This document shows positions 36,143-53,386 of a DNA stretch of 64,000 nt, in pieces. The notes beneath the pieces were generated by a model. It was not told the origin of the DNA. It saw nothing but the letters and a program-made list of their open reading frames with translations, and did no database searches. Source of the stretch: an uncultured Candidatus Binatia bacterium (GTDB taxonomy: Bacteria; Desulfobacterota; Binatia; Bin18); NCBI GenBank assembly GCA_965200965.1, contig OZ241744.1, forward strand, positions 3,136,001 through 3,200,000. The letters are read 5' to 3'. Within the stretch, counting starts at the first letter, position 1. Each line of letters starts with the position of its first letter. The translations under genes were made by a program, and so were the position numbers.

Positions 36143-36193
36143 GAGGACGGAACGCGTCGCCTTCCGTTCAATCTGATGACACGTTCCGTCCTC
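36143..36193 (-). repeat. 51-bp palindromic element, copy A (intergenic; overlaps the stop codon of the SLT gene)
   Basis: Minus strand: GAGGACGGAACGTGTC atcagattgaacggaaggc GACGCGTTCCGTCCTC. Confidence 0.9.
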
Positions 36194-36890
36194 AGGACAC
36201 CAGACAGACCCGCACGGGCGCGAGTTCGTGTTTATCTGAGGGTGGGGACAGCGGATAGTCGAGAACCGGATAGAAAGGAGTGTAGCCGGAGCGGATTTTA
36301 TCGGCTCGCTGCAACACCTGGCGGACATATCGCTGCGTCTCCCGATAGGGGTGGTAGTCCCGCTGTTTCAGACGGGTCGGCCCCATATTATAGGCGGCCA
36401 GAGCGGGCTCCATATCATCAAAGCGGGACAGCATGGTTTTGAGATAGGACAGCCCGCCGTACACCAGGACCGGCAAGGCGTGCTCAGACCGGGACAGGCC
36501 GACTTCCTCCAGGGCGACAGGTCTGATTTGCAGCGGTCCACGTCCGCCCCGCGGGCCGCGTTTCATCGGGTCTCGGGTGTCGCTCTCCTGAAGCAGGAGC
36601 GCAACGGCCAAGGTCTCGTCCAACTCCAGTTCCCGCGCCAGGCAGCGGGTATACTGCTCAAGGGTAGGCCCGCCCCGGGGGGTCTTGTCCACGGCCGGCG
36701 GCCTCACCTGTCCCGCCGCTACCGCCGGCGGCTTTTGGCTCGGCTCCGGCTCTTGGCCAGGAATCGGCGCGACGCGCGGTGGTGGCTGAAGGAGGAGGAA
36801 CGTGACACTCAACAGCGCGACAGCCAGGCAGCCGTAGCGGTAAGCCGGATGACTCGGAAAGGGGGAGGGGTCAGTGTTCATACGATACAT
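36192..36890 (-). CDS. Lytic transglycosylase (SLT domain) protein
   Basis: AAGGAG RBS, N-terminal TM, LLLQES, GPLQI, ALAAYNMG, ETQRYV. Confidence 0.85.
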   Translation of the reverse strand: MYRMNTDPSPFPSHPAYRYGCLAVALLSVTFLLLQPPPRVAPIPGQEPEPSQKPPAVAAGQVRPPAVDKTPRGGPTLEQYTRCLARELELDETLAVALLLQESDTRDPMKRGPRGGRGPLQIRPVALEEVGLSRSEHALPVLVYGGLSYLKTMLSRFDDMEPALAAYNMGPTRLKQRDYHPYRETQRYVRQVLQRADKIRSGYTPFYPVLDYPLSPPSDKHELAPVRVCLVS

Positions 36891-37226
36891 TTCTCCTTGG
36901 GATGCAAGGTTTCTCAGCAGACGCAAGGCAACACGGCAGGGCTGGCGGATCGGCCGGTGTCGCTCAGCAGCGATGATAGACGGGGGGGGGTATTCCACCT
37001 GGATTGATTCGCGGTGACAAGTCCCGGCATGGGAGATGCCAGACTTGCGCGGGAGGGCTGATATGGCAGCATTTCACTATCCGCAGTCCGCGACGACAGA
37101 GGCACCGCTTGATCAGCTTGCCCAGCGGGCGATTCCTCTGGCTGCCGGCCTTCTCGCCAAGCGGCAGCACAACAGGTCGGCCCATAGTGCCAAAATTGCC
37201 CGCATGATGGAAGACCCCCTCGCCCT

Positions 37227-38945
37227 TCACTCCCGGGCCAGAGCAAAAACCCACAGCACACCGCCCTGCGGAACGTGGACCGTGCGGCCAAAGGCTTTAT
37301 CAAGCAACTCTTGTTTGCGCTGGGCGTCCACGCCCCAGCCGGACTGCACGGCGATATACTGGACGCCGTCAATCGCATAGCTGCTGGGCACGCCGGTCAC
37401 GCCCGAGTTGGTCCGCTGCCGCCACACCACCTCGCCGGTTCTGGCGTCAAAGGCGCGGAAGTAGCGGTCGTTGGTGCCGCCCGAGAACACCAGGCCGCCG
37501 CCGGTGGTCAGCACCGGTCCCCAGTTATGCGACCGAAAGGTTGTCGTCCAGACCCGCTTGCCGGTGTTCATGTCCCAGGCTTGCAGCTCGCCGATATGCG
37601 CCTTGGCGTCCTCGTGCGGGATGACTTCGATATCCGAGATTTTCAGACCGATGAACAGCTCGCCCGGCCGGTAGGTGGCCGGCTCGCCCCGCATGGCCCC
37701 ACACAGGTTTTCGTTGGCCGGGATGTACACATAGCCGGTCTTAGGGCTGTAGGCCGAGGGTGGCCAGTCTTTCCCGCCCCAGACCGAGGGGCAGAACTCG
37801 GCCCGTGTGCCGATATCGGGAATCCTGACCGGGTCGTACTCGGGCCGGCCGGTCGTGGGATCAAGCCGGGTGAACACGTTCTGGCGGACAAAGGGTTGAG
37901 CATCAACAAAGCTGATCTTGTCGGCGCTGCGCTCCAGCAGCCACAGATAGCCGTCGCGGCCGGCGTGGACCAGCCCTTTGAAGGCGCGGCCGTCCCGCTC
38001 CACATCGATCAGCAGCGGGGCGGACACCTCGTCCCAGTCCCAGGAACCGTTCCAGTGGTACTGGTGCCAGCCCTTGAGTTCACCGCTGTCGGCGTCCAGG
38101 GCGATGACCGAGGTGGCGTACAGATTATCGCCGGGGCGGGTGCTGCCCATGAACGGCCCGCCGTTGCCCGTCCCCCAGTAGGTCAGATTCGTCTCCGGGT
38201 CATAACTGCCGGTGATCCAGATCGACACCCCGCCGGTTTTCCAGGTGTCGCCGGCCCAGGTGTCGTGGCCGGGCTGGCCGGGACCCGGAATGGTATAGGT
38301 TTTCCACACCGACTCACCCGTCTCGGCGTCAAACGCCTGGATAAACCCCCGAATGCCCATCTCACCGCCGGACACGCCCACGACAACCTTGCCCTTCACA
38401 ACCAGGGGGGCCAGGGTCATGTAATAACCGGCCAGGTAATTCTCGACCTCGGTCTCCCACGCCACCGCCCCGGTCCTGGCGTCCAGGGCCACCAGATAGG
38501 CGTCCACCGTAGCGACATACACCTTGTCGCCATACAGGCCGACCCCTCTGTTGGTCGGGTGCAACTGGAACAGGTCCTCGGGCAGCTCACGGCGATAGCG
38601 CCAGAGCAGGTCGCCTTTTCTGGCGTCCAGAGCCAACACTTGGTTCTGGGGGGTGGTGATGAACATCACCCCGTTATTGACAATCGGCGGGGCCTGGTGG
38701 CCCTCATCAACCCCGGTCGAGAAGGTCCACACCGGCACCAGCTTGTTCACATTCCGGGGCGTGATCTGGTCCAGCCGACTGTAGCCCCAGCTGTCGTACG
38801 TCGCCCGGTACATCAGCCAGTTTTCCGGCTCGGGTGTGAGCAGCCGCTCGTTGGTGACCGGGCTGTAGTCAAGAGCCTCAGCGGCCGCGGAGCCGGGCAG
38901 CAGCCCGACGCTCAGCAGCATGATAAGAACGCGCAGTAGGGACAT
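37227..38945 (-). CDS. PQQ-dependent alcohol dehydrogenase family protein
   Basis: Signal peptide, beta-propeller W motifs, SGGEMGIRG, WGTGN, WDWDE, GGKDW, DGVQYIAV. Confidence 0.92.
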   Translation of the reverse strand: MSLLRVLIMLLSVGLLPGSAAAEALDYSPVTNERLLTPEPENWLMYRATYDSWGYSRLDQITPRNVNKLVPVWTFSTGVDEGHQAPPIVNNGVMFITTPQNQVLALDARKGDLLWRYRRELPEDLFQLHPTNRGVGLYGDKVYVATVDAYLVALDARTGAVAWETEVENYLAGYYMTLAPLVVKGKVVVGVSGGEMGIRGFIQAFDAETGESVWKTYTIPGPGQPGHDTWAGDTWKTGGVSIWITGSYDPETNLTYWGTGNGGPFMGSTRPGDNLYATSVIALDADSGELKGWHQYHWNGSWDWDEVSAPLLIDVERDGRAFKGLVHAGRDGYLWLLERSADKISFVDAQPFVRQNVFTRLDPTTGRPEYDPVRIPDIGTRAEFCPSVWGGKDWPPSAYSPKTGYVYIPANENLCGAMRGEPATYRPGELFIGLKISDIEVIPHEDAKAHIGELQAWDMNTGKRVWTTTFRSHNWGPVLTTGGGLVFSGGTNDRYFRAFDARTGEVVWRQRTNSGVTGVPSSYAIDGVQYIAVQSGWGVDAQRKQELLDKAFGRTVHVPQGGVLWVFALARE

Positions 38946-38978
38946 GGCTATTTCCTTTTCTTGCCGGCGTCCGGCCGC

Positions 38979-40280
38979 TCAGCCTCCGACCGGCCTGAAC
39001 TCGATGTGCAGCTCCTTGAGCGCCCGCAGGGCGAAATTGGGAGCAACGCTGAAGTCGTTCTTGCCCGGCGCAAACCACATCTCCTCAACACGGTCGAGCA
39101 ACGCCTTGAAGGCCCAGTACAGCTCCCGCCGGGCGAGCGGCGCGCCCAGGCAGTGATGGACGCCGGAGCCAAACGCGAGGTGCCGGCCGGGCTTGTCACG
39201 CTCCAGGTCCAGCACCTTGGGGCGGTCGAACTCGCGCTCGTCGCGGTTGCCGGCGGCGTAGCGGATGTTCAGGATGGAGCCTTTGGGGATGGCGACGCCG
39301 TGCAACTCAAGGTCGGTGGCGGTCGTGCGGAAGAGGCCCTGCACTGGGCTTTCCAGGCGCAGGGCCTCTTCGACAAAGGTGCGCAGGTGTTTGTCCGGGT
39401 CGGCCTTGAGCATGTGCCAGGCGGTTGGGTTCTCAATGAGCAGCTTGACGCCAAAGCCAATGGCGTTGGTCGAGGTCTCGGAGCCGCCGACAAAGGTATC
39501 GGCCATCATTTCGGCGTGCAGCTCGTTGTCGCTCAGCGGCCGGCCCCACTCGGGGACGGTGCGGTTGACCAGCTCAGACAGCAGGGTGTCGTCCGGCTGT
39601 TGGCGCAGGCGCTCAAAGATGGGCTGAAAATAGTGCTGGGCCTCTATCTCCATCTCCACCGACCATTGTTCTTCCTCCTCGGTCTGCATCATGCCGAGAC
39701 GCTGCACCCAGGCGTCTGTCCAGGCCTTGATCTGCCAGATATCGGCTTCGGGCACGCCCATCTGCCGGCCGATGACGATCAGGGGCAGCGGCACGGCGAA
39801 CTGCCGCACCCAGTCGCAGGAGCCGTCATCAAGAAAACCGTCAATGAGCCGGCAGGCGGTCTGCTCAACAAAGGGGTCCATCTCGTTGATCCTGGCCGGC
39901 CGGAAGGCTTCGTTGAACATGGCCCGCATCTGGCGGTGGCCGGGGTCGTCGCGGCCGGCCAGGGTCTCGGCCGGCAGCCAGCCGTTTTCTTCGTACAGCT
40001 TGCGCATCCGCTCGGCGCGCTGCGGGTCAATCCGCTCGCGCCCCCCGCCCTGGCCGCCGCGCATCCCGTTGACAAAGCGTTCGGTGTCGAGCAGGACGCG
40101 GCGCACATCCTCAAAGCGGGTGATGACGTAGAAGCCGGTCAGCGGGTCTTTCCATACCGGGGCCTGGTCGCGCAGCTTTTGATAGGCGTGATACGGGCAG
40201 TTCTGCAAACCCGTATCCAGCAGCTTGATATCGTCGAGGGATTCGGGCCTGATTGGCTGGGAGGGCACTTGTTCAGTCAT
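38979..40280 (-). CDS. Cytochrome P450
   Basis: GGSETS I-helix, EEALR (ExxR), FGSGVHHCLG haem motif. Confidence 0.95.
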   Translation of the reverse strand: MTEQVPSQPIRPESLDDIKLLDTGLQNCPYHAYQKLRDQAPVWKDPLTGFYVITRFEDVRRVLLDTERFVNGMRGGQGGGRERIDPQRAERMRKLYEENGWLPAETLAGRDDPGHRQMRAMFNEAFRPARINEMDPFVEQTACRLIDGFLDDGSCDWVRQFAVPLPLIVIGRQMGVPEADIWQIKAWTDAWVQRLGMMQTEEEEQWSVEMEIEAQHYFQPIFERLRQQPDDTLLSELVNRTVPEWGRPLSDNELHAEMMADTFVGGSETSTNAIGFGVKLLIENPTAWHMLKADPDKHLRTFVEEALRLESPVQGLFRTTATDLELHGVAIPKGSILNIRYAAGNRDEREFDRPKVLDLERDKPGRHLAFGSGVHHCLGAPLARRELYWAFKALLDRVEEMWFAPGKNDFSVAPNFALRALKELHIEFRPVGG

Positions 40281-40292
40281 TTGGGGTCCTCA

Positions 40293-41019: not shown

Positions 41020-41103
41020 GCCGGGATGGCGGAATTGGTAGACGCAGTGGACTCAAAATCCACCGCTGGCGACAGCGTGCGAGTTCGAGCCTCGCTCCCG
41101 GCA
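41020..41103 (+). tRNA. tRNA-Leu(CAA)
   Basis: GCCGGGA/TCCCGGC acceptor stem, GTGGA-CTCAAAA-TCCAC anticodon arm, long variable arm, GTTCGAG T-loop; CCA not encoded. Confidence 0.96.
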
Positions 41104-41153
41104 GTCGCCCACTCCCCTATCCGCCTGCCTCTCCACACAAGCCCTGATATCTG

Positions 41154-41168
41154 TTACCTGTAAGGTAA
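41154..41168. promoter_or_regulatory. Palindromic candidate operator upstream of higBA
   Basis: TTACCT-GTA-AGGTAA inverted repeat 18 bp before the toxin start. Confidence 0.5.
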
Positions 41169-41186
41169 TGTAAAGCAGATACCAGG

Positions 41187-41522
41187 GTGGAAATCGTCTT
41201 TCGGACTACACGGCTCGCCAAAACGTTCAACTCTGCCAGCGCTCTCCAGGCGGCATACGGCGGCCGCATAGCGCCTGTTATTATGAAGCGTCTTGCAGTT
41301 CTCAAGAACGCCAGGACACTATTGCTGGTACCGACCAGCCGGCCGGAGCGACGCCATCAGCTTCGTGGTGGGCGGAGCGAGCAGTACGCCGTCGATCTCG
41401 TGCATCCCCACCGGCTGGTTTTCACACCAAACCATGAGCCGCTCCCACGCAGGGCGGATGGAGGGGTGGACACGGACCAGGTAACCGCAATTACCATTAT
41501 TGAAGTAGTGGACTACCACTGA
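41187..41522 (+). CDS. higB: HigB/RelE-like toxin (plasmid maintenance killer family)
   Basis: MEIVFRTTRLAK, RRHQLRGGR.EQYAVDL..PHRLVF, IIEVVDYH end. Confidence 0.85.
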   Translation: MEIVFRTTRLAKTFNSASALQAAYGGRIAPVIMKRLAVLKNARTLLLVPTSRPERRHQLRGGRSEQYAVDLVHPHRLVFTPNHEPLPRRADGGVDTDQVTAITIIEVVDYH

Positions 41523-41536
41523 AGGAGGGTAAGGAC

Positions 41537-42637
41537 ATGGGGACTGAGGCCCATCACTACCGACCCGACTACGCGGTTGCGCCGGGCGCAATCGTGCTCG
41601 AGCGCCTTGCGGCGCGTGGCATCTCGCGGGCCGAGTTCGCCCGGCGGTGCGACCGCTCCCCAAAGCGCCTCAGTGAGATCATTGCTGGAAAGGCACCGGT
41701 TGAGCCGGAAACGGCTCTGCAATTCGAGAAAGTCTTGGGTGTTGATGCAAGCATCTTGCTCGGCATTGAAACAGACTATCAACTCCATCGGGCGCGTGAG
41801 GCTGAGGCGAAAAAAACACAAGAGGCCTCTTCCTGGACACAGGCGTTTCCCCTGCAAGAGTTAGTGAGGCGAGGGATCATGGAGAAGCCTTCCTCCGATT
41901 CCAACACGGTGGCACGGCTGCTGACCTTCTTTGAGGTCGGGTCGGTCAAGGCCTGGTACGCGAAGTATGAACGGATGAGCGTTGCCTATCGACATTCGCC
42001 GAGCTTCAGGAGCGAAACACCCGCACTGGCAACCTGGCTGCGGCTTGGGGAGTTGGAGGCAGAGAAGCAGGAATGCGCCGATTACGACGCAGAGCAGTTC
42101 AGGCGGGTGTTGAGGAGAATTCGTGGGCTTACCCAGACGCCAGTAGCAGACGCTATAGAAAAGGCGCAACACCTCTGCAACAAGGCCGGTGTTGTGCTGG
42201 CTCCGCTCAAGCCTTTCCCCAAAATCGCGCTCAGCGGTGCCGCCTGGTGGTTGACCCCTCGCAAGGCGGTGATTACGCTCAGCGCACGCCATAAAACAGA
42301 CGATCACCTGTGGTTCAGCCTGTTCCACGAAGCGGCCCACCTCCTGCTGCATAGCAAGAAGGCCGTTTTTCTTGACGGGATGCAGAAGAATAACACTGGT
42401 GCGGACATTGAGACGCAGGCCGACAAGTGGGCGTCCGATTTTCTTGTTCCTCGTTCTCATTGGGAGCAGTTTGTCAACGCGGCTTCCTACAGCGAAAGGG
42501 CTATCCGTCAATTCGCCAGGGAACAGGACATAGCCCCAGGCATCATTGTCGGGAGGCTTCAGCACGAAAAGCATCTCAGCTGGGGAACGCCTCTGAACAA
42601 GCTGAAAGTACGGCTGGAGTGGAAAACGGCCTCGTGA
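41537..42637 (+). CDS. higA: HigA-type HTH antitoxin fused to an ImmA/IrrE-like metallopeptidase
   Basis: PDYAVAPG, HTH with ETALQFEKVLG, WFSLFHEAAH (HExxH), E.QADKWA. Confidence 0.85.
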   Translation: MGTEAHHYRPDYAVAPGAIVLERLAARGISRAEFARRCDRSPKRLSEIIAGKAPVEPETALQFEKVLGVDASILLGIETDYQLHRAREAEAKKTQEASSWTQAFPLQELVRRGIMEKPSSDSNTVARLLTFFEVGSVKAWYAKYERMSVAYRHSPSFRSETPALATWLRLGELEAEKQECADYDAEQFRRVLRRIRGLTQTPVADAIEKAQHLCNKAGVVLAPLKPFPKIALSGAAWWLTPRKAVITLSARHKTDDHLWFSLFHEAAHLLLHSKKAVFLDGMQKNNTGADIETQADKWASDFLVPRSHWEQFVNAASYSERAIRQFAREQDIAPGIIVGRLQHEKHLSWGTPLNKLKVRLEWKTAS

Positions 42638-42657
42638 ACGATCCAAGCCTGTCTGCA

Positions 42658-45600
42658 ATGACAGCGGTCCCGGATTCCAAATTTGACCGCCTGAAGGCCA
42701 TCCTGCGGACGATGTTCCAGCTCGACCGCGGGGATCTCGACTTCGGCCTGTACCGGATCATGAACCGGAAAGCCGGGGAAATTACGCATTTCCTCGACAC
42801 CGAACTGTTGCCGCAGGTCCGGGCTGCGTTGGCCGGCAACAGCGCCGGCCAGCAGGCCGCACTGAACAAGGAACTGGAGCAGGCCAGGCAGCAGGCCAGG
42901 GGGTTGGGCGTTGACCCGGACACCACCCCCGCGGTCCGGGAGTTGCAACGCCGGTATGCCAATGCCAGGGCCGACGCCAACGCAGAGGCCGAGGTCTACA
43001 ACCACCTGACCAACTTCTTTAGCCGCTATTATGACGAGGGCGACTTCATGTCGTTGCGCCGGTATTCGGGCGGTGGCCGGCCGACCTATCTGATTCCCTA
43101 CAACGGCGAGGAGGTGAAGCTGCACTGGGCCAATGCCGACCAGTATTACGTCAAGTCAACCGAGAATTACGCTGCCTATGTTTTCACGCTGGCCACGGAC
43201 GCACAAACCCGCCGGGTGCGCTTCGAGATCACGCGGGCGGACACCGAACGGGACAACGTGAAGGAAACCGCCGGCCGCCAGCGTCGCTTTGTGCTGGCCG
43301 AGGACCCAGGGTCGGTCGTTGTTGACAAGGGCGAACTGGTCGTTCGTTTTGAGCACCGGCCCCTGACGGCCACCGAGAAGAAAGCCTATCCCTCCGGCGG
43401 CAAGCAGCAGGACCGGATCAACGAGGCGGCACGCGACCGCATCCTGAAAGCCCTGCCCCCGGACTGGCTGAGGCCGCTGGCCAGCCCCGCCCCGTCCGAG
43501 AGGACGAAACGTGTCACCAGCTCGGGAGGAGGGCGATACGTTTCGTCCTTGAGCCAGCCCGATCGCACCGTGCTGGACAAGCACCTTGCCGTCTACACGG
43601 CCAAGAACAGCTTTGATTATTTCATTCACAAGGACCTGGGCGGCTTCCTGCGGCGCGAGTTGGACCTGTACCTGAAGACCGAGGTGCTGGACCTGGACGA
43701 CCTGGCGATGAGCGACACCGCCCAACTCAACCGGGCCTTGGGACGCCTGCGGGCCGTCCGCCAAGTGGCGGACAAGATCATCGCCTTTCTGTCCCAGATT
43801 GAGGACTTTCAAAAGCAGCTCTGGCTCAAAAAGAAGTTCGTGCTGGACACGCACTATTGCGTGACGCTCGACCGCGTGCCCGAAGCCTTCTACCCAGCAA
43901 TAGCGGCCAACAAGGCCCAGCATGACGAATGGCTACGGCTGTTTGCCATTGACCGGATTGCGGCCGCCCTGACCACCCCCGGTTACACCAACCCCCTGAC
44001 CGTGGAGTTTCTGAAAGCCAACCCCTTTCTGGTGCTGGACACCCGCCACTTTGACCGGGACCTGAGCGACCGGCTGCTCGCCGCCCTGTCAGACGCCGGG
44101 CCGCTTGACGAGCAGATGGACGGCCTGCTTGTCCACGGCGAGAACTTCCAGGCGTTGCACCTGCTCCAGACCTGCTATCAGGGGCAGGTGCAGTGCGTCT
44201 ACATCGACCCGCCGTATAACACCGGAAATGACGACTTCCTGTACAAAGACAGCTATGAAGATTCAAGTTGGCTGTCCATGATGCAGAACAGACTGACGCT
44301 AGCCTATCAACTGCTTGATAAGAATTCAGGAAGCCATGCAATCAGCATTGATGACCGAGAGTTGTCCGCTCTCTTATTTTTGCTACGAAGCGTTGCTCTC
44401 GAAAAGGCTGCTAAAACCGTTACTGTGAAGATGGCTGAACCGACCGGAGTGAAGATGGCACATGTTGTACGCTCTGGTGGGATTCCTAAGCTCAAGGAGT
44501 ATATCGTCCTTGCCAAACCGTCGGGAATTCAGGGTTTTCATCTTGAAAAAGTGCCAAAGGAACAATGGGACGCCGAATACAACTTGATGGTGACCGGTAT
44601 CTCGCATGATGAAGTGAGATGGCTGAAGGACATCATCCATGACTCAAATAGAACGGATGGAGATGTGAAAATTGCTGATGATCTATGTCAGCGTATTTCC
44701 CTACGGCCAGTTGCGGAGATACTTACTGAAAATGGTGTTCCATCCAAGCAAACCGATTCTTGGAAGCGTGAGAATGCCTGGCGGATCGTTCGCACGGTTG
44801 CCACAACCGCTAGCGCAAAAACTTTGGCTGATGAAAAGAAGAGGCATTTTCCCACAAACTGCTTCACTGTGGTGACTTCTTTACAGCGAATGTACGTTAT
44901 GAAAGCTGAATATGAACGGGAGGCAGAACAACCCCGCGTCCGCATTCTATTTGCGGATGACTATCTGAACGTTCATCCTGGCGATTTCTGGCAGGACATT
45001 AAAACGACCGGCCTGGATAATGAGGGCGGGGTTGAGTTGATCAGTGGGAAAAAGCCGGAAAAGCTCCTCAAGCGTATAATTGGAATGGCCTCTTCGTCTG
45101 GAGAGTTGGTTTGTGATTATTTCCTCGGTAGTGGTACAACCACTGCCGTAGCTCAGAAGATGGGCAGAAAATGGCTTGGAGTCGAGTCAGCACCCTTCTT
45201 TGCGAGTCTTCCACTTAAGCGGATGAAATTGGTGCTCCGCGGAGAAAAAGGTGGAGTCAGTGAAGAGGAATCTTGGAAGGGCGGTGGCCTATTCAAATAC
45301 ATCCGCCTCGAATCCTACGAAGACACGCTGGACAGCCTCGAACTTACCCCCCGCTCAGACGCGCAGGAGGAACTGCTGACCGCCAACCCGGCCCTGGCCG
45401 AAGATTACCTGTTGCGCTACACCCTTGGCGAAGAAACAGCCGCCAGCGCATGCCTGCTGGGCACGCATTTCACCGACCCCTTCGCCTACACCCTGTCGGT
45501 CGTGCGGGACGGCGCACGCCGGCAAACGCCTGTTGACCTGCCCCAAACCTTCAACTACCTGCTCGGCCTGCGCGTCTCAGCCTGGCGTCGCCTTGACGGC

Positions 45601-45858
45601 CTGCTGACCATCACCGGGACCGATGCCTCGGGCCAACGCTGCCTGATCCTGTGGCGCAATCTGAACGACACCGACAACGCCGGCCTGAGCGACTGGTTCA
45701 CCCGCCACCGGCCGGCCTTTGCCGAGCCGTTTGATCTGCTCTACGTCAACGGCGACCACACCCTGAACGCCTTGCGACAGCCACACGACACCTGGACAGC
45801 CCAGACCATCGAGCCGGTCTTCCGGGAGCTGATGTTTGCGAATACCCGGAAGATGTAG
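42658..45858 (+). CDS. mod: Type III restriction-modification methyltransferase (Mod); alternative GTG start at 42634
   Basis: DLDFGLYRIMN, YNGEEVKLHWANADQYYVK, DYFIHKDL, YIDPPYNTG, DYFLGSGTT, YIRLESYEDTL. Confidence 0.92.
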   Translation: MTAVPDSKFDRLKAILRTMFQLDRGDLDFGLYRIMNRKAGEITHFLDTELLPQVRAALAGNSAGQQAALNKELEQARQQARGLGVDPDTTPAVRELQRRYANARADANAEAEVYNHLTNFFSRYYDEGDFMSLRRYSGGGRPTYLIPYNGEEVKLHWANADQYYVKSTENYAAYVFTLATDAQTRRVRFEITRADTERDNVKETAGRQRRFVLAEDPGSVVVDKGELVVRFEHRPLTATEKKAYPSGGKQQDRINEAARDRILKALPPDWLRPLASPAPSERTKRVTSSGGGRYVSSLSQPDRTVLDKHLAVYTAKNSFDYFIHKDLGGFLRRELDLYLKTEVLDLDDLAMSDTAQLNRALGRLRAVRQVADKIIAFLSQIEDFQKQLWLKKKFVLDTHYCVTLDRVPEAFYPAIAANKAQHDEWLRLFAIDRIAAALTTPGYTNPLTVEFLKANPFLVLDTRHFDRDLSDRLLAALSDAGPLDEQMDGLLVHGENFQALHLLQTCYQGQVQCVYIDPPYNTGNDDFLYKDSYEDSSWLSMMQNRLTLAYQLLDKNSGSHAISIDDRELSALLFLLRSVALEKAAKTVTVKMAEPTGVKMAHVVRSGGIPKLKEYIVLAKPSGIQGFHLEKVPKEQWDAEYNLMVTGISHDEVRWLKDIIHDSNRTDGDVKIADDLCQRISLRPVAEILTENGVPSKQTDSWKRENAWRIVRTVATTASAKTLADEKKRHFPTNCFTVVTSLQRMYVMKAEYEREAEQPRVRILFADDYLNVHPGDFWQDIKTTGLDNEGGVELISGKKPEKLLKRIIGMASSSGELVCDYFLGSGTTTAVAQKMGRKWLGVESAPFFASLPLKRMKLVLRGEKGGVSEEESWKGGGLFKYIRLESYEDTLDSLELTPRSDAQEELLTANPALAEDYLLRYTLGEETAASACLLGTHFTDPFAYTLSVVRDGARRQTPVDLPQTFNYLLGLRVSAWRRLDGLLTITGTDASGQRCLILWRNLNDTDNAGLSDWFTRHRPAFAEPFDLLYVNGDHTLNALRQPHDTWTAQTIEPVFRELMFANTRKM
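43500..43550 (+). repeat. 51-bp palindromic element, copy B, in frame inside mod
   Basis: GAGGACGAAACGTGTC accagctcgggaggagggc GATACGTTTCGTCCTT; encodes RTKRVTSSGGGRYVSSL. Confidence 0.9.
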
Positions 45859-45887
45859 GTCGGCTCAGCCACCAGGCGTAAGCCGAC
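45855..45887 (+). repeat. GTAG-type REP-like palindrome overlapping the mod stop codon
   Basis: GTAGGTCGGCTCAGCCACCAGGCGTAAGCCGAC; same layout as 5128-5157; degenerate copy at ~47089. Confidence 0.7.
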
Positions 45888-45922
45888 AAACCAGCATCCG
45901 CCCCTGCCCACACGGAGAAAAG

Positions 45923-46159
45923 ATGAGCCCAGAAATTATTGCCATCGCCACCGTAGGCACAGCCCTGGCCGCCCTGATCCTGACCGGCCAGCGGACCATC
46001 CGCGCCGAACTGGCCGCCCAGCGTCAAGACCTCGCCGCCCAGCGGCAGGACTTGGCCGCCCAACGCCAGGACCTCGCCGCTTTGCGTGAGCGAATGGCCC
46101 ACCTTGAGGGGCTGCTTGAAGGGCTCCGGGAAGCCCTCACCCGCGAGCGAGCCGCCTAG
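45923..46159 (+). CDS. Small N-terminal TM + heptad-repeat coiled-coil protein, copy 1
   Basis: GGAGA RBS; LAAQRQD x3 encoded by 21-bp tandem repeats. Confidence 0.75.
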   Translation: MSPEIIAIATVGTALAALILTGQRTIRAELAAQRQDLAAQRQDLAAQRQDLAALRERMAHLEGLLEGLREALTRERAA

Positions 46160-46183
46160 AAGCCTGATGTTCAAAGGAAAAAT

Positions 46184-47107
46184 GTGATGGCATCCAAAGA
46201 CGACGATTTCTACAAGCAGACCTTTTCACAACGGGAAGGCAAGGCCCCACTGCCTGAGCCTATGCGGCTGGAGCATATCCCACAAAAATTCAGACAGTTG
46301 GTATGGGGCTTTATAGACAAAGAAATTGCTGCCTCGCGCTGGCTTAGTCCGGGTGAATTCGGTCGTGGTTCGTCTCAATGGCGCGACCGTAGCAGGAATC
46401 TCGGGATCATTATAAGAGCCTACAAATTCAATATCCTGGGGATGTTGCATGATGAAATAGGTCGATGTGACCCGGAAGACTCTTTAATATTTTTCAAGCA
46501 AGTGATAACAGAGGGGAAATACCACGAAATCCTGGCGCTCATTGAATTCGTCCTGCGACACGAACTCTGTTCGGAAACTCTCCGCAAGAACCTCGTTAGC
46601 GCTTTTGACGACACTCCAATCGCTTATTTCGTTGAGGAGATAAATGGGGTTCCAACCATTATGCCACGGGTGAGCCGTGAAGCTGGTGAGGGGACACAGC
46701 AAGCCGTCCAGAGTATAAGCGCAGGTGGCTTCGAAGGAGCGGCAACCCATCTACGGCAAGCAGCGGAGCAGATAAACACGGGACAATATGCAAAGTCGAT
46801 TGTGGACAGCATCCACGCCGTTGAATCCGTAGCGCGTGAAATTGCTCCAAAAGAGAGCAAAACCCTCGGCCCCGCGCTCAATTCTCTTTCAGAGGCCGGG
46901 CTTCTGCATCCGGCGCTCAAGGAGGGATTCAAAAAGATATACGGTTACACAAACGACGAGCAGGGAATACGACACCCCCTTGTTGATAGGGACTCCCCCG
47001 ATGTCGGGCTGGATGAGGCCATGTTCATGTTTGGGGCGTGCGCGTCCTTTACCGCTTATCTCGTCAGCAAACACCGGAAGATGCAGGGCGGCTCAGCCAC
47101 AGGCTAG
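46184..47107 (+). CDS. AbiJ-NTD4-like / HEPN-like abortive-infection-associated protein
   Basis: TFSQREG N-terminus, SIHAVESVAR, TLGPAL, LHPALKEGFKKIYGYTND.QGIRH, EAMFMFGACASF; lower GC. Confidence 0.65.
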   Translation: MMASKDDDFYKQTFSQREGKAPLPEPMRLEHIPQKFRQLVWGFIDKEIAASRWLSPGEFGRGSSQWRDRSRNLGIIIRAYKFNILGMLHDEIGRCDPEDSLIFFKQVITEGKYHEILALIEFVLRHELCSETLRKNLVSAFDDTPIAYFVEEINGVPTIMPRVSREAGEGTQQAVQSISAGGFEGAATHLRQAAEQINTGQYAKSIVDSIHAVESVAREIAPKESKTLGPALNSLSEAGLLHPALKEGFKKIYGYTNDEQGIRHPLVDRDSPDVGLDEAMFMFGACASFTAYLVSKHRKMQGGSATG

Positions 47108-47184
47108 CGGCTTCCGCTCCGTCTATCCGCCCCGCGGCTGCCCACACGGAGAAAAGATGAGTCCAGAGATTATTGCCGCCCGGG

Positions 47185-47433
47185 TCAGGATGCAGCTTGC
47201 CCGTTGCTCCATAACTCATACTCGCTGATATCAATATCGCTGCTCCACACCACCGCATAACCGCCCCGCTCTACTTGAACGGATCTGAAGAAAGCCGGGG
47301 TTTTCAGAGGGGCAAACCGTTCTCTTTTGAGCAAAGGCACCACATCATATGTTCGTTTTTGCGCGTTATCAAATCCAACCAGAAGAGTATGGTCGTCAAT
47401 GATTTCAACAGATTGTATCCTGGGATATGGCAT
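47185..47433 (-). CDS. DUF2442-like protein (putative TA partner)
   Basis: IQSVEII.DHTLLVGFDN...FAPLK...FFRSVQV..GG.AVVW..DIDI. Confidence 0.75.
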   Translation of the reverse strand: MPYPRIQSVEIIDDHTLLVGFDNAQKRTYDVVPLLKRERFAPLKTPAFFRSVQVERGGYAVVWSSDIDISEYELWSNGQAAS

Positions 47434-47435
47434 GG

Positions 47436-47578
47436 CTACTCCAACGGTGGTAGTCTGCGAAACTCCTGAGAGTTCCACATTTCGTTCAGTTCCCGCCTGT
47501 TCAGAGTTGCCCACTCACTAACAAGTTTTCTGGCTCTTTGCGGCAGATCGCCTTCTATTATTTCCAAAGTAAGGAGGT
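47436..47578 (-). pseudogene. 5'-truncated DUF4160-like gene
   Basis: TLEIIEGDLPQRARKLVSEWA.LNRRELNEMW...RLPPLE; N-terminus missing at the repeat junction. Confidence 0.7.
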
Positions 47579-47582
47579 AAAG

Positions 47583-47798
47583 ATGAGTCCAGAGATTATT
47601 GCCATCGCCACCGTAGGCACAGCCCTGGCCGCCCTGACCCTGACCGGCCAGCGGACCATCCGCGCCGAACTGGCCGCCCAATGTCAGGACCTCACCGCTT
47701 TGCGTCAGGACCTCGCCGCTCTGCGTGAGCGGATGGCCCACCTGGAGGGGCTGCTTGAAGGGCTCCGGGAAGCCCTCACCCGCGAGCGAGCCGCCTAG
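47583..47798 (+). CDS. Small N-terminal TM + coiled-coil protein, copy 2
   Basis: Near-identical to 45923-46159 but one heptad shorter; AAGGAGGT RBS. Confidence 0.75.
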   Translation: MSPEIIAIATVGTALAALTLTGQRTIRAELAAQCQDLTALRQDLAALRERMAHLEGLLEGLREALTRERAA

Positions 47799-47857
47799 CC
47801 GGCTGTGTCAGCTTCCGCTCCGCTCTTCCGCCCTGCACCCCGGCGGCTGACCAAAGG

Positions 47858-50800
47858 ATGTTGCTCATGCCTCAGACAGGCACCACGCCCCTGCAAAACC
47901 GCCTCGTGCTGCACCGCTTTGTCTGTCGGGAGTTCGGCTATGAGGACATGCCGGCCATGCTGGACCGGCTGCGCAACGTGCCGGCCCGGCTTGACCCCAG
48001 TGGCGAGAGCGAGTACGCCCGCGCCCTGTACCTGAACCCGGATCGCGCTACAGTCAGCCCCGAGCATCTGGCCACCTACGACGCCAACATCACGGCCCAC
48101 AGCCGCCGGCTGCGCCTGGCCGGCGAACACGGGCGGACCTGGAAGCCCTATCAGTACCTCGCCCTGCTGTTCACCGAACACTACCTGTGCCGCTATTTTG
48201 ACGACCCCGAAGGGCTGCGGGCTGCGCTGAACGCGGCCAGAGGGCTTGACCCGGCCATGCCCGAGTATACGCCCGAGGAACTGCGCACCCTGGCCTTTCA
48301 GAGCGCCACCGGCTCGGGCAAGACCCTCCTCATGCACGCCCACATCCTGCAATTCCAACACTACCGCAAGCGGGCCGGCCAGCCGCTCAACAACATCGTC
48401 CTGCTGACACCCAACGAGCAGATGTCGGGCCAGCACGAACGCGAGTTGCGGGCCAGCGGCCTGTCGGCGCGCCTGTTCTCTGCCGAAGCCGGGGCCGAGC
48501 TGTTCTCACCCATCGAGATCATTGACCTGAACAAGCTGGCCGAAAAGACGGGCGTCAAGCGGGTGGCTGTGCAGGACTTTGGCGACAATAACCTTGTACT
48601 GGTTGATGAAGGACACCTGGGCGCGTCCGGCAAGGTGTGGCGCGAGCGGCGCAAGGAGTTGTCCCGCGGCGGCTTTACCTTTGAGTATTCGGCCACCTTC
48701 AACCAGATCGCCACCAAGAAGGAAGCCGACCTGCTCAATGCCTACGGCAAATGCCTGCTGTTTGACTACGCCTACCGCCAGTTTCACGACGACGGCTACG
48801 GCAAGGACTACGCCATCTCCAACCTGCCGGAGGACGCCGGCAACCGCATGTACCTGCTCGGCTGCCTGCTGACCTTTTACCAGCAGTGCCGCATCTGGCG
48901 GGACAAAGGCGCGGGCTGGGCGGCCTTCAACCTCGCCAAGCCGCTGTGGGTCTTTCTGGGCAAAACCGTCACCGGCTCCAGCCAGACCAACGTCCAGACC
49001 AGGTCTGACGTTGCGCTCATCCTGGACTTCCTGGCCTGGGTGCTGGCACACGGGCAGGCGGTCCGGCCCATGCTTGCCCGCCTGCTGGCCGGTCAATCCG
49101 GCCTGTCTGACGAGCGGGGCCGGGAGTATTTTGCCGGCCGCTTCGCCTATCTCACCCAGCAAGGAGTGAACGTGTCATCAGATCGACAGGAGGGCGACAC
49201 GTTCACTCCTTCCCGCGCCGGCGACCTGTACGCCGATATGTGTCAACTCCTGTTCCACGGCCAGGGCCGGCTCCATGTCGTCTATCTGACCGCCGGCGAA
49301 GGTGAACTGCACCTGCGCAGCGCCGATAACCCGGTGTTCGGCGTGGTCAACATCGGCGACGCCGCGGCCCTCTACAGCCTGCTGACCGAACAGGCGAACC
49401 CCGACCTGTCCACCGAGCGGGAAGCCGGCTTTGCCGAGCGGCTGTTCGCCGACATGGACCGGCCGGACTCGCCGGTCAACATGGTCATTGGCGCACGGCG
49501 CTTTATTGCCGGCTGGAACTCCTGGCGGGTCAGCACAATGGGGCTGATGCATGTCGGGGTGGGCGAAGGGCCGGAGATCATCCAGATGTTCGGCCGCGGC
49601 GTGCGGCTCAAAGGCTGGAAGGCCGGCCTCAAACGCCACCGCCACAGCGCAGTGCCGCCGCCCAAGGACAGCGCCGAGCTGGCCGAACTGGAAACGCTGT
49701 ACATCTTCGGGCTGCGTGCCAACTATATGCAGACCTTCCGCGACCTGCTGCACAAAGAGGGGATGCGGGTGGAGCGGGAAACCGTCAGGCTGCCCGTGAC
49801 CTGGAACCTGGGCCAGCGGCCAGACCTGAAACTGCTCCGTATCCGGGCCGACCAGCAGTTTGAATGCTCCGACGAGCACCCGGTCCTGCCCAACCCTGAT
49901 GAGCCGGGCCGGCCGCTGGTGACGCTGGACCTGTACGCCCGGTTGCAGGCCGTGGCCTCCGGGGCAGCACCGGCCGGCCCCATTCAGCACCAGACCCCGG
50001 TTACACTTGAGCCGCGCCATACCGGCTTTTTCAACTACAGCCGGCTCTACGACGCGCTGCTGAGGCAAAAGCAGCACAAGGGCTGGCACAACCTGCGTAT
50101 CAGGCCAGAGACAGTTGAGCGTCTGTTGCAGGATAGCGGCTGGTACAAGCTGTACATGCCGGCGGAGCGCCTGAATGTGGCCGATTTTCAGGGCGTGAGG
50201 GCGCTGGAAGACATCGCGCTTGCGCTCATCACCGCCTATGCTGATCAGTTCTGGCGCGCTCAGCGCCGGCGCTGGGAGAGCGACAACATGGAGGTGGTCA
50301 GGCTGGACGAGGCTGACCCCAACAATGTGCGGACCTACGAGTTGTCGGTGGATGCCGCCCACAGCCGGCTGATCGACGACCTGCGCCAACTGGCGGCAAA
50401 TGTCAGGGAAGGTTATTGCGCGAGCCTGCAACTCGGCGTCATGCTGGCCGGGGCGCACGCCTATCAGCCGCTTGTGTACGCCGGGGAGGGCTGCCAAGTC
50501 AGCGTCCGGCCGCTGGCCCTGGACGAGCATGAGAAACTGACGGTCGAGAAACTCGCGGCACTGGCCGAGGGCCGGGACCCATGTCTCGGCGGCAGAGATC
50601 TGTATCTGATCCGTAACCTGAGCCGGGGCCGGGGCGTATCGTTTTTTGACGACTTCGGCTATTACCCCGACTTCATCGTCTGGCTGAAAAACCCGGACTG
50701 CCAGCACATCATTTTTCTTGACCCCAAAGGCTTGGGCCGGTTCGGGGGCAGAGAGCGCCGAAAGGTCGAGTTGCACCGCACCATCAAAGCCCTTGAAGAG

Positions 50801-50977
50801 CGGATTCGGAAAACCGACCCCGACCTGCGCCTGCACGCCTACGTCCTGTCCGTCACCCCGGCACACGAGATTGACGACGGCAGCCGCCCTGCCTCCGCCT
50901 GGCAGAACGCCGGCGTCTATTTCCTGGAGGAACCCGATTGCCTGAAGCGGGTGATTGAGCACGCCTTGGGCGCGTAG
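47858..50977 (+). CDS. res: Type III restriction endonuclease/helicase (Res)
   Basis: SATGSGKT, LVDEGH, FEYSATF, IQMFGRGVRL, C-terminal YYPDFIVW...FLDPKG nuclease. Confidence 0.9.
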   Translation: MLLMPQTGTTPLQNRLVLHRFVCREFGYEDMPAMLDRLRNVPARLDPSGESEYARALYLNPDRATVSPEHLATYDANITAHSRRLRLAGEHGRTWKPYQYLALLFTEHYLCRYFDDPEGLRAALNAARGLDPAMPEYTPEELRTLAFQSATGSGKTLLMHAHILQFQHYRKRAGQPLNNIVLLTPNEQMSGQHERELRASGLSARLFSAEAGAELFSPIEIIDLNKLAEKTGVKRVAVQDFGDNNLVLVDEGHLGASGKVWRERRKELSRGGFTFEYSATFNQIATKKEADLLNAYGKCLLFDYAYRQFHDDGYGKDYAISNLPEDAGNRMYLLGCLLTFYQQCRIWRDKGAGWAAFNLAKPLWVFLGKTVTGSSQTNVQTRSDVALILDFLAWVLAHGQAVRPMLARLLAGQSGLSDERGREYFAGRFAYLTQQGVNVSSDRQEGDTFTPSRAGDLYADMCQLLFHGQGRLHVVYLTAGEGELHLRSADNPVFGVVNIGDAAALYSLLTEQANPDLSTEREAGFAERLFADMDRPDSPVNMVIGARRFIAGWNSWRVSTMGLMHVGVGEGPEIIQMFGRGVRLKGWKAGLKRHRHSAVPPPKDSAELAELETLYIFGLRANYMQTFRDLLHKEGMRVERETVRLPVTWNLGQRPDLKLLRIRADQQFECSDEHPVLPNPDEPGRPLVTLDLYARLQAVASGAAPAGPIQHQTPVTLEPRHTGFFNYSRLYDALLRQKQHKGWHNLRIRPETVERLLQDSGWYKLYMPAERLNVADFQGVRALEDIALALITAYADQFWRAQRRRWESDNMEVVRLDEADPNNVRTYELSVDAAHSRLIDDLRQLAANVREGYCASLQLGVMLAGAHAYQPLVYAGEGCQVSVRPLALDEHEKLTVEKLAALAEGRDPCLGGRDLYLIRNLSRGRGVSFFDDFGYYPDFIVWLKNPDCQHIIFLDPKGLGRFGGRERRKVELHRTIKALEERIRKTDPDLRLHAYVLSVTPAHEIDDGSRPASAWQNAGVYFLEEPDCLKRVIEHALGA
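49161..49211 (+). repeat. 51-bp palindromic element, copy C, in frame inside res
   Basis: AAGGAGTGAACGTGTC atcagatcgacaggagggc GACACGTTCACTCCTT (perfect 16-bp arms). Confidence 0.92.
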
Positions 50978-51009
50978 CCGTCGCCCGGGTCAACCACGGG
51001 CACGGCCCG

Positions 51010-51383
51010 ACACCAGGCCGCCGGCAACTCTACGGTGAGCTCGCGCCCGAGCCGGCGCAGGGCTTTGTGAATACGGTTTACGGTAGTGTGACGGCGCAGG
51101 TCAAGCAGCTGCCGGACCACTTTGGCGCAGGGTGACAAGCGGCTGTCACGAAAGGCAAGCGCGAGGGCAGGCTTTGCCGCCATGTCGGGCATGTCGGGGG
51201 GCACACTGATGAGCCGCTCGCCGGTGCGTCGTCGGCAATGCGGCCGGCGACGGCTTCCTCCAGCGCGTCCCGGGCCTCGGCTTTGTCGGCCCCGGAGGTG
51301 AGACACTCGGGCAGGTCTCTGAATGAGACAATGAGTTGGCCCGAGCTATAGGGCTGAAGCCGTGCCGGGTAGCGGAACTGCAT
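51010..51383 (-). pseudogene. Frameshifted HicB-family antitoxin
   Basis: MQFRYPARL...VSFRDLPECLTSG...ARDALEEAVAGRI, then in another frame AAKPAL...VRQLLDLRRHT...KALRRLGREL; no hicA seen. Confidence 0.75.
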
Positions 51384-51416
51384 GGCTCTCTCCTTACTCA
51401 CGCGGGGCCCGTATTG

Positions 51417-52451
51417 TCAGCCCTCCCTCAGCGGCGGGTCGGCGATTTTCAGCAGTTGCTTGCCCAGGTTTTTGCCCTCAAACAGACGCAGGAAGGTACG
51501 CGGGGCGTTGGCAAAGCCGGTCTGGATGTCTTCCTGGTGGACGAGCTGCCGGCTGTCGAGCCAGGTCCGCAGTTCTTGCACTGCCTCGGCAAAACGCGGG
51601 TAATAATCGACCAGAATAAAGCCCTCCATACGCGCCCGCTGAAGAATCAGATTGAAATAGTTTCTGGGGCCGGGCTGGAGGGCTTCGTCGTTGTAGCGGG
51701 AGATGCCGCCACACAGCACGATGCGTGCCTTCATCGCAATCTGGGCCAGGGCCGCATCCAGAATCTGGCCGCCAACATTATCAAAAAAGAGGTGGATGCC
51801 GTCCGGGCACAGCTCCCGCAGCCGGCCGGCGACATCTTCGGACTTGTAGTCAATCGCCGCGTCAAAACGGGCCGTCTCGGTCAGCCAGGTACACTTGTCC
51901 GGCCCGCCGGCAATGCCAACCACCCGGCAGCCCTTGATTCTGGCGATCTGCCCGGCAATAGAGCCGGTCGCCCCCGCCGCCCCGGACACCACACAGGTCT
52001 CCCCGGCCTTGGGCTGGCCGATATCGAGCACCCCAAAATAGGCGGTCAGGCCGGTGATGCCGAGCACCCCGAGCGGGGCGGTCAGCGATGTCCCAGGGGG
52101 GATTTTTGAAGCCGGCATCAGGCCGCCCTTGCCGGTGGTAACGGCGTAGTCCTGCCAGCCAAAGCCGCCCTGCACATAGTCCCCGGGCTGATAGTCGGGA
52201 TGTCTGGAAGCCGCCACCTGTCCGGTGGTGACGGCCCGCATGACCTCGCCGAGCTGGATCGGCGGAATATAGCTGGGCCGGTCATCCATCCAGCCCCGCA
52301 TGGCCGGTTCAAAAGCAATGTAGCAGTTACGGACCAGGAACTGGCCATCGTCCAACTCTGGAACAGGCGCTTCATGATACTCAAAATCGGACGCTTTGAC
52401 CATGCCCCGGGGGCGGGCGGCCAGCAGCCATTGGCGGTTCATCTGGGTCAT
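51417..52451 (-). CDS. NADP-dependent oxidoreductase (CurA/prostaglandin reductase-like)
   Basis: NRQWLLAARPRG, GLTAYFG, VSGAAGATGS, FDNVGG, GKNLGKQL. Confidence 0.92.
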   Translation of the reverse strand: MTQMNRQWLLAARPRGMVKASDFEYHEAPVPELDDGQFLVRNCYIAFEPAMRGWMDDRPSYIPPIQLGEVMRAVTTGQVAASRHPDYQPGDYVQGGFGWQDYAVTTGKGGLMPASKIPPGTSLTAPLGVLGITGLTAYFGVLDIGQPKAGETCVVSGAAGATGSIAGQIARIKGCRVVGIAGGPDKCTWLTETARFDAAIDYKSEDVAGRLRELCPDGIHLFFDNVGGQILDAALAQIAMKARIVLCGGISRYNDEALQPGPRNYFNLILQRARMEGFILVDYYPRFAEAVQELRTWLDSRQLVHQEDIQTGFANAPRTFLRLFEGKNLGKQLLKIADPPLREG

Positions 52452-52483
52452 TGTTTCCTCCTTGGAGTATTCGTCGGCGTGCT

Positions 52484-53329
52484 TCACAGGCCGGCAAAGT
52501 AGGCGCGGACAATCCGCGCCACCTCGTCCGGCCTCTCCATCGGCAAAAAATGGCTGGTGTCCGGGACCGTGACCAGGCTGGCGCGGGGAATGCGCCGGGC
52601 GGCACGCTCGGCAATGGCGAACAGCGGCGGGTCTGTTTGCGCGCCGCGGATGACTACCGTCGGACAGTCCACCCGGCTCAGCGGGGTGTACAGGTCGGCA
52701 AGCGGGGCCTGGGCGAAGACATGGGCTTCTACCCTGACCGGACATTTGAGCTGGATACGTCCGTCGGGCAGGTCGGCCGTGCCGTGGGTGACATAATCCC
52801 ACAGGATCGCTTCCTGCCAGCCGGCAAAGGTGGCTTTGGTCCGGTAGGCGTCAAACAACTGTTGGCGTGAGTCCCACACTTCCCGCCGGCGCAAGGTCTG
52901 CTCAACAAGCGGTCGCTCGGTCGGAGAGGCCGGCCGCAGTTCAGGCGGAAAGGTCACCGGCTCAAGCAGGGCCAAGCCCTTCACCCGGCCATGCTGGTTG
53001 GCCGCGTAGCCGGCCAGCAGGGCCGCCCCGCCGGAATGGCCCAGCCCATAAAAATCACCCAGCCGCAACTCGGCAACCGTCGCGGCGACATCCCGGGCCA
53101 TGTCCTGCCAGTGGGTGTCTCGGAGGGCCGGCTTGTCGCTGTCGCCCTGACCACGCAGGTCAAGGGTATACACCTGGTAGGCGTCTTCAAGGTGCCGGAT
53201 CAACTCCCGGTAGACCTGGCCAAGAAAACCGTTGGCATGCACCAGCAGCAGGGCCGGCCCGGCACCGCCCCAGTCGGCAACATGGAGTTTGACACCGCCC
53301 ACCTCAATGAATTGGCTGCGGGGCTTCAT
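52484..53329 (-). CDS. Alpha/beta hydrolase
   Basis: HANGF, DLRGQGDS, GHSGG nucleophile elbow, SHFLPME. Confidence 0.9.
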   Translation of the reverse strand: MKPRSQFIEVGGVKLHVADWGGAGPALLLVHANGFLGQVYRELIRHLEDAYQVYTLDLRGQGDSDKPALRDTHWQDMARDVAATVAELRLGDFYGLGHSGGAALLAGYAANQHGRVKGLALLEPVTFPPELRPASPTERPLVEQTLRRREVWDSRQQLFDAYRTKATFAGWQEAILWDYVTHGTADLPDGRIQLKCPVRVEAHVFAQAPLADLYTPLSRVDCPTVVIRGAQTDPPLFAIAERAARRIPRASLVTVPDTSHFLPMERPDEVARIVRAYFAGL

Positions 53330-53335
53330 AGCGTT

Positions 53336-53386
53336 AAGGACGGAACGTGTCGTCAGAGCAAATGGAAGGCGACATGTTCCGCCCTC
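53336..53386 (+). repeat. 51-bp palindromic element, copy D, just upstream of the hydrolase start
   Basis: AAGGACGGAACGTGTC gtcagagcaaatggaaggc GACATGTTCCGCCCTC. Confidence 0.88.

Follow-up and report, generated by a model that had tools for sequence, protein, structure and literature searches.

In a 64,000-nucleotide stretch of the genome of an uncultured Candidatus Binatia bacterium (hereafter the window: bases 3,136,001-3,200,000 of the single-contig genome G000, of 3.62 Mb and 61.5% G+C), four copies were found of a 51-bp palindrome made of two 16-bp arms and a 19-nt spacer. They belong to a gene-less mobile element. The element has moved between sites, its junctions are blunt, the target is read on one strand with insertion three bases after a C, the ends of the element match this target, and copies that lie close together resemble each other. 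Because the one-sided CNNN^ target and the matching element ends point to topoisomerase-I-like chemistry, we propose that the host topoisomerase I, TopA, excises the element as a single-stranded hairpin and reinserts it, a reading to which we assign a probability of about 0.4. What is new here is the one-sided (T)CNNN^ target signature together with the matching element ends, which makes the mechanism testable.

Genome-wide family and pairing of the arms

An iterated profile built from the four window copies gave 98 matches above 18 bits in the whole genome, 95 of them with at least 9 of the 16 arm pairs, and no match in two 6-mer-shuffled genomes searched with the same profile on one strand each. 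The first-pass annotation of the window had considered that no further copies might exist; the family numbers 95. It had also called the length invariant, which can be maintained only loosely, as a profile of 51 columns builds part of this constancy in, 23 partial or length-variant matches and hairpins of 46-54 bp exist as well, and a sister family in relatives, described below, measures 50-57 bp. The ends of the element read RAGG/CCTY, and the TGTC/CGTC that it contains lies inside the paired arm and not in an unpaired terminal tag. The Shine-Dalgarno-like GGAAGG/GGAGG reported for the spacer is indeed there, with nothing to link it to translation. A likeness of the spacer to helix 8 of the signal recognition particle RNA or to the sarcin-ricin loop was dropped, as it had no support from Rfam and the loop varies.

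The differences between arms had been described as compensatory, and an alignment of 51 copies bears this out: 87% of the cells pair, two-sided changes occur in 13 of the 16 pairs, the covariation score was reached by none of 500 shuffles, and the two pairs with the highest mutual information are the arm pairs 6-46 and 7-45. Strong covariation of this kind, together with a few sites occupied by copies with near-identical arms in both genera that carry the element, could mean that the copies are maintained as functional RNA hairpins or protein-binding sites, and a structured RNA had been among the earlier suggestions. The mismatches argue against it. In spacer orientation G.T is not in excess (65 versus 72 A.C), and on the mRNA strand of the 46 intragenic copies the helix-breaking A.C outnumbers G.T by 47 to 16 (p = 1e-4; 27 versus 8 copies) in a comparison where the substitutions are not polarised, while 26 tandem intergenic copies have no mismatch bias. 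In addition, most alignable sites are empty in a close relative, and Rfam gave no match at gathering score. The pairing is a feature of the DNA, and maintenance as a functional RNA is very improbable. The counts on the mRNA strand suggest that an mRNA hairpin may be a burden in coding sequence and that selection may act to weaken it there.

The spacer lies in opposite orientations in G000 and in a relative of the same genus (G007) at one site (3254063), and it is flipped between two metagenome contigs at another (L230, L283). Template switching homogenises arms and inverts spacers, according to one study (PMC8604942); it would account for both the arm covariation and the spacer flips without selection on structure.

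Empty sites, blunt insertion and local spread

Mobility was assessed by comparison with G007, of which 1.2 Mb of 3.6 Mb was fetched. Both flanks could be aligned for 68 of the 95 G000 sites. The two genomes differ by exactly 51 bp at 28 of these and by 49-53 bp at another six, 12 sites are shared or hold a remnant, and 22 show other net gaps, often through indels in the flanks. The reverse comparison of 16 G007 copies gave four shared sites, three clean insertions of 51 bp and one of 52 bp, the rest comprising several imprecise or remnant sites and three without both flanks. Orthologous loci mostly lack the element and do not, as had been allowed for, always contain the same 51 bp. The longest repeat shared by the two flanks measures 0, 1, 2 or 3 bp in 55, 25, 10 and 5 of the 95 copies, respectively. 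Insertion is blunt and makes no target duplication.

These junctions bear directly on a suggestion of the first-pass annotation, that of an element like a miniature inverted-repeat transposable element (MITE). An ordinary MITE would depend on a DDE transposase whose autonomous partner has been lost. The 16-bp terminal inverted repeats, the absence of coding capacity and the many copies would fit such an element. The blunt empty sites already largely refute it, the target duplication being missing in all 28 exact 51-bp empty sites and the flank repeats reaching at most 3 bp in the 95 copies; moreover, the arms vary freely so long as pairing holds, and the target motif is one-sided. No autonomous IS with these ends was recognised, the half-copies in G000 and the unpaired arms in metagenome loci being without annotation. 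We regard this as the least probable of the explanations considered.

Copies are clustered, with 35 gaps of less than 5 kb against 11.6 expected, and near copies are more alike, the mean number of pairwise differences being 11.2 under 2 kb, 13.3 at 2-10 kb and 16-18 beyond 10 kb. Furthermore, 7 of the 12 copies present only in G007 have a G000 copy at a different site no more than 2.5 kb away (p = 4e-5). From these three observations we infer local hopping. The empty orthologous sites, the 95 copies and the in-frame gene insertions described below support the earlier proposal of a miniature mobile element mobilised in trans and resembling the Rickettsia palindromic elements (RPEs).

Two further observations concern individual loci. 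Adjacent or tandem copies of the element occur in G006 and G007 (L192, L187, L099). At another locus (L005; G000:C1:1912171), the full element of G007 corresponds in G000 to a remnant of the left arm, immediately followed by an ATG; this remnant may now serve as a ribosome-binding site.

Distribution and sister family

A covariance model was searched in 121 genomes, with at most 49 candidates scored per genome. Matches were obtained in 6 of the 7 genomes of the element's own genus (g1) and in 21 of the 28 genomes of one other genus of the family (g8), some of these genomes having 1-4 matches only, and the remaining genomes gave a single weak match. The scan of relatives thus places the element in two genera. 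The sister family found in relatives has near-invariant arms, AAAGAG(G/T)AAACGTGTC, and variable spacers; 50 of its 98 distinct sites have a length of 54 bp, and its few alignable empty sites are blunt too. Sister-type elements occupy the same site in both genera at G000:C1:3271108 and L163, and also at L157, L181, L263 and L282. The elements at these shared sites have similar arms and diverged spacers, pointing to old insertions or to repeated use of one site.

Footprint at the target and at the element ends

Target flanks are enriched in C at -4 and G at +4. A C at -4 was present on at least one strand at 88 of the 95 sites (chance about 52%, p = 1e-17), compared with 28-64 of 95 when the same count was made at each of the remaining offsets from 1 to 9. 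Presence on one side is negatively correlated with presence on the other (both 23, left only 30, right only 35, neither 7; Fisher p = 1e-4), which indicates that one strand is read at the target and rules out a symmetric target in G000. This C recurs in 24 of 28 G007 copies, all from the fetched part and some shared with G000, and at 74 of the 98 sister-family sites. Only the C is required, positions -3 to -1 being nearly free; among the 65 one-sided G000 sites, T stands at -5 in 29 (p = 3e-6). There was no bias in the strand cut, either between leading and lagging (31/34) or between coding and template strands (15/16), and the spacer took the two orientations relative to the target motif in 53 and 42 copies.

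The same signature was found at the ends of the element itself. In G000, 181 of the 190 element 3' ends have C at -4, the best-conserved position of the arm, and the ends read TCCTT/TCCTC. The pattern TCNTY is fitted by 109 of the 190, and TCNTT makes up 0.27% of the 5-mers of the genome. In the sister family, 142 of 196 3' ends read TCTTT. As a marker of polarity, the terminal A/G was weak (p = 0.06) and was set aside, as was the idea of a target that is itself a hairpin, given that the flanks do not pair across the junction.

When symmetrised, the flanks approach a weak palindrome, KCNNN^NNNGM, around a 6-bp core, and the sister family favours G at -5 on both sides. The genome has only two tyrosine recombinases, both of XerC/XerD size, and such a core could mean that host XerC/XerD or another tyrosine recombinase integrates the folded single-stranded hairpin at degenerate sites, as in integron or CTX-type systems. 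This is improbable, since the C is one-sided in G000, insertion splits the 6 bp in the middle and there is no coupling sequence, mismatches at the junction do not clearly exceed the flank background in the 28 clean sites, and the flanks fail to pair across it.

Match to topoisomerase I and proposed mechanism

Bacterial topoisomerase I (TopoI) uses R169, R173 and Y177 to select a C that lies four bases 5' of its cleavage site (PMC3467081). In vivo, the E. coli enzyme has the motif TCNTTA/T, with cleavage at TA, four bases past the C (PMC9352719). If the element were closed end to end, it would read TCCTT^A or TCTTT^A, which is the E. coli TopoI consensus. G000 has one topA, and in its product the C-pocket RRILDRLVGY aligns with RRFMDRVVGY of E. 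coli, the pattern RRxxDRxxxY being intact. An extra or special topA was considered and rejected, as every element-bearing genome examined has one topA match only.

In the mechanism that we propose, the arms would fold into a hairpin in transiently single-stranded DNA and would thereby juxtapose two CNNN^ sites, one at the passage from target to element and the other at the passage from element to target. Two 5'-phosphotyrosine cleavages by TopA, followed by religation with the partners swapped, would release a closed 51-nt hairpin with a junction reading TCCTY^R and would restore the target, while the reverse reaction would insert the hairpin at a nearby CNNN^ site. Through replication the new copy would become fixed, and the old one would be kept on the sister strand, so that copy number would go up. 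Either strand could be used, since both ends fit, and the random orientation of the spacer is consistent with this. Template switching between the arms would give rise to the compensatory changes and the spacer flips, and selection would then favour copies through which the reading frame stays open. The scheme takes it that TopA can join separate molecules.

Several points weigh against a role of TopA. The match is one of motif and not of enzyme identity, so that the link to TopA is one predicted from sequence. The gene topA was found in 45 of 46 genomes while the element was detected in two genera only, and therefore a further factor binding the inner arm or the spacer may be needed for mobility. 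A C at +5, enriched in both families (33/65 and 35/56), is foreign to the AT-rich E. coli motif, and G at -5 is common in the sister family (110 of 196 half-sites). Among the 24 of 98 sister sites that lack C at -4, 21 have C at -3, mostly after T or G, a slip of one base that a strict ruler does not predict (L152-L194, L225-L284). At the junction of a closed 51-nt hairpin, hardly any DNA is unpaired. Divergent regions hold no excess of intergenic copies (8 versus 8.7 expected). The activity may have ended, with possible loss of the enzyme, because contigs of conspecific strains contain all four window copies. Finally, no paper on strand transfer by TopA or on its mobilising a natural element was met in the literature searched, most subscription papers lying outside it.

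The TopA cleavage motif could also enter in a more modest way, if repair or replication captured the hairpin at nicks or breaks with no recombinase involved and the C at -4 marked a TopA break, not strand transfer. Such capture would account for the target motif and the local spread with no new chemistry. It leaves unexplained the C at -4 in the ends of the element itself, as well as the exact 51-bp junctions without deletion or microhomology, and we judge it about as improbable as integration by Xer recombinases.

Search for other mobilisers

Nearly as likely as TopA is a dedicated phosphotyrosine strand-transfer enzyme, HUH/Y1-like or topoisomerase-like, which would have been carried by a now-absent mobile element or phage and would have recognised a CNNN^ or CNN^ target together with the conserved arms. 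Both the slip between -4 and -3 and the C at +5 suit a different enzyme of this sort. Arms that are almost invariant across two genera resemble a protein-bound site, the distribution is patchy (6/7 g1 and 21/28 g8 genomes, some with 1-4 matches), and the window copies are fixed in the conspecific strains compared. Blunt insertion without duplication is, moreover, the outcome of Y1/HUH transposition, as in IS200/IS605 (PMC6006769).

The searches made for such an enzyme point the other way. The first-pass annotation had envisaged a transposase flanked by the same arms; none was found at 30 Y1 loci of the family, where no arm pair and one weak arm match with 3 mismatches were seen, and the Y1 genes inspected in element-bearing genomes are like RAYT, the tyrosine transposase associated with repetitive extragenic palindromes (REPs), three of them being accompanied by GTAG REPs. 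Nine unpaired arms in 60 metagenome loci, taken without annotation of the genes beside them, resemble copies that have decayed or arisen by chance. No match to the element was obtained in viral contigs (three patterns), phage records or plasmid records. The dedicated enzyme would also have to act without a lagging-strand bias and to share the TopA motif by coincidence.

In G000 itself, no Y1 gene (PF01797), IS110 gene or serine recombinase was detected. The site of topoisomerase IB is (C/T)CCTT; this enzyme was found in none of 55 family genomes, with a positive control in Deinococcus radiodurans. No IS-like multicopy gene was present among the listed near-identical gene families of G000, no search having been aimed at DDE families or at the whole proteome, and no mobility gene was named among the 79 genes adjoining clustered copies, some of which had no NCBIfam match. 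The one GIY-YIG match lies in a 659-aa frame of the size of UvrC. A reverse transcriptase was rejected as the mobiliser: the single gene (G000:C1:2404925-2406298, L300), apparently of the defence type, is broken by a TAG and has no link to the element. G000 also contains two arrays of about 20 near-identical genes, at least 80% alike and reaching about 800 aa (G000:C1:271700-305600 and 1131700-1165200), which probably encode membrane proteins, and several smaller tandem families of short coiled-coil-like proteins.

Genes occupied by the element

With a simple gene caller, 46 of the 95 copies fell inside open reading frames (ORFs), 11 overlapped the end of an ORF and 38 were intergenic, and the 46 intragenic copies are in frame in their predicted ORFs, the length being, as had been noted, divisible by three. 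All three sense phases are used (9, 13 and 13 copies), and almost only one of the antisense phases (1, 9 and 1). Only 12 of the 95 copies are open in the antisense phase that is used least, and phases that bear stops are seldom used. In-frame inserts also seem to be selected against, because purging of stops alone would leave about 79% of copies intragenic. The last tenth of the gene holds 14 of the 46 intragenic copies. Whatever the enzyme, the consequence is a set of 17-residue inserts in about 46 predicted proteins, among them threonyl-tRNA synthetase, MurF, the CCA-adding enzyme (two copies), PhoR (two) and Cas3 (three).

The four window copies and their loci

The coordinates and strands first given for the four copies were confirmed, each with the 16+19+16 architecture. 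Arm mismatches number 1, 2, 0 and 3 of 16 in copies A, B, C and D, and the DNA hairpin fold of each copy has a z-score between -4.7 and -6.9, with none of 200 shuffles folding equally well. Copy A (36143..36193, minus strand) lies between an amidohydrolase gene and an SLT-domain gene, touching the stop codon of the latter, at a site that is empty in G007; upstream of its junction, the T(-5)C(-4) target motif is assigned to 36138..36139 (plus strand) from the sequence and the family statistics. Copy B (43500..43550, plus) is inserted in frame in the methyltransferase gene (N6_N4_Mtase) of a type III restriction-modification system (42619..45858, plus), whose frame is intact. G007 is shorter here by exactly 51 bp, without duplication, and the sequence has T(-5)C(-4) upstream of the copy at 43495..43496 (plus).

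Copy C (49161..49211, plus) has perfect 16-bp arms and is in frame in the restriction subunit gene (ResIII) of a type III system (47858..50977, plus), again with an intact frame and with G007 shorter by exactly 51 bp. Position 4 (G) of its left arm (49161..49176, plus) is the best-conserved arm base and gives the C at -4 from the bottom-strand 3' end. The asymmetric 19-nt spacer (49177..49195, plus) is conserved in G000, variable in the sister family and can face either way with respect to the target motif. The right arm (49196..49211, plus) ends in TCCTT, in agreement with TCNTT in the cut motif of E. coli TopoI. Through copies B and C, respectively, the type III genes Mod and Res are each 17 codons longer. 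Copy D (53336..53386, plus) stands between divergent genes, 7 bp away from the start predicted for an alpha/beta hydrolase gene, and its site is empty in G007, G001 and G003. Copies C and D have C at -4 on both strands.

Contigs of conspecific strains span all four window copies without gaps, these four being the ones examined within the species, and the four insertions are therefore older than the split of those strains. Contigs about 99% alike to G000 occur in a sequencing run labelled sponge metagenome; among the sequencing runs listed, no RNA run holds the organism.

The region 41020-50977 of the window is a defence island that follows a tRNA and comprises an HTH/IrrE-like gene, type III Mod, an AbiJ-NTD4 fragment and type III Res; in G007, the Mod region seems to have undergone duplication or rearrangement. 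REPs of the GTAG type are present at 45855 (plus) and 5124 (minus). They are of the same kind as those flanking RAYT genes in G001, G006 and G024, and no RAYT was found in G000. The contrast drawn in the first-pass annotation stands to this extent, that these REPs are unrelated to the 51-bp element, whose ends have no GTAG tag. Its statement that the window holds no transposase is to be read more narrowly: none was recognised, in a Pfam scan that covered 31 of the 196 listed window ORFs.

Comparison with known systems

RPEs are about 100-150 bp long, and the 51-bp element is shorter. The two are alike in being palindromic and gene-less, in lying in frame in open ORFs and in having a mobiliser that is not known, as RPEs are described in a paper on REPs (PMC3733652). 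They differ in that the sequence appears unrelated, in a comparison confined to Rfam, which gave no match, and in that blunt junctions and a one-sided CNNN^ target have been measured for the 51-bp element. REPs of the GTAG or CGTC type and REP doublets forming hairpins (REPINs), which go with RAYT (TnpA-REP), are likewise small dispersed stem-loops, some of them intragenic, and CGTC families are stated to be without a dedicated transposase in the same paper (PMC3733652). The element departs from them in having no unpaired terminal GTAG or CGTC/TGTC tag, a stem of 16 bp and a loop of 19 nt versus stems of 6-13 bp with mostly short loops, and mostly single copies instead of dimers. In addition, a Y1 gene was not detected in G000, nor one between such arms at the Y1 loci fetched from relatives. 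The REP-like reading proposed at first does not hold for the GTAG and CGTC types, given the missing terminal tag and the fetched Y1 loci without element arms.

Elements of the IS200/IS605 group, which move by peel-and-paste, read the target on one strand, recognise hairpins and pass through a single-stranded circle, and they are the template for the model proposed here. They use base pairing to choose a fixed tetra- or pentanucleotide adjacent to the cut as target, and they show a lagging-strand bias. By contrast, the 51-bp element requires only the C at -4 and has no strand bias, and no transposase was found for it; the absence of a target duplication is common to both (PMC6006769). Bacterial MITEs such as RUP and Correia/NEMIS share with it terminal inverted repeats, of 15-30 bp, and a lack of coding capacity, and measure 70-300 bp versus 51 bp (PMC3733652). 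Unlike them, the element makes no target duplication, and in G000 its arms are conserved in pairing more than in sequence. The element does not fit the definition of a MITE, a REP or an IS200/IS605-derived element, and no description of such an element or mechanism was met in the literature searched.

The closest correspondence is with the cleavage specificity of TopA, in which a C four bases 5' of the cut and TCNTT^A agree with the element ends and, loosely, with its targets (PMC3467081, PMC9352719); the difference is that TopA is described as resealing the same strand. Should TopA prove to be the enzyme, a housekeeping topoisomerase would be serving as a transposase, and there would be a 51-nt module for scarless insertion. 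We tentatively suggest, with somewhat less confidence than for the mechanism itself, a class of mobile DNA that has no transposase, of its own or in trans: hairpins of 51-54 nt whose ends are optimal TopoI sites, which would be moved by the essential host TopA and would add inserts of 17-18 residues to proteins. The mobility of orphan palindromic repeats, among them RPEs and CGTC REPs, has long called for an explanation. The clean empty sites and the footprint described here name a candidate enzyme, and by analogy the same footprint may explain those repeats as well.

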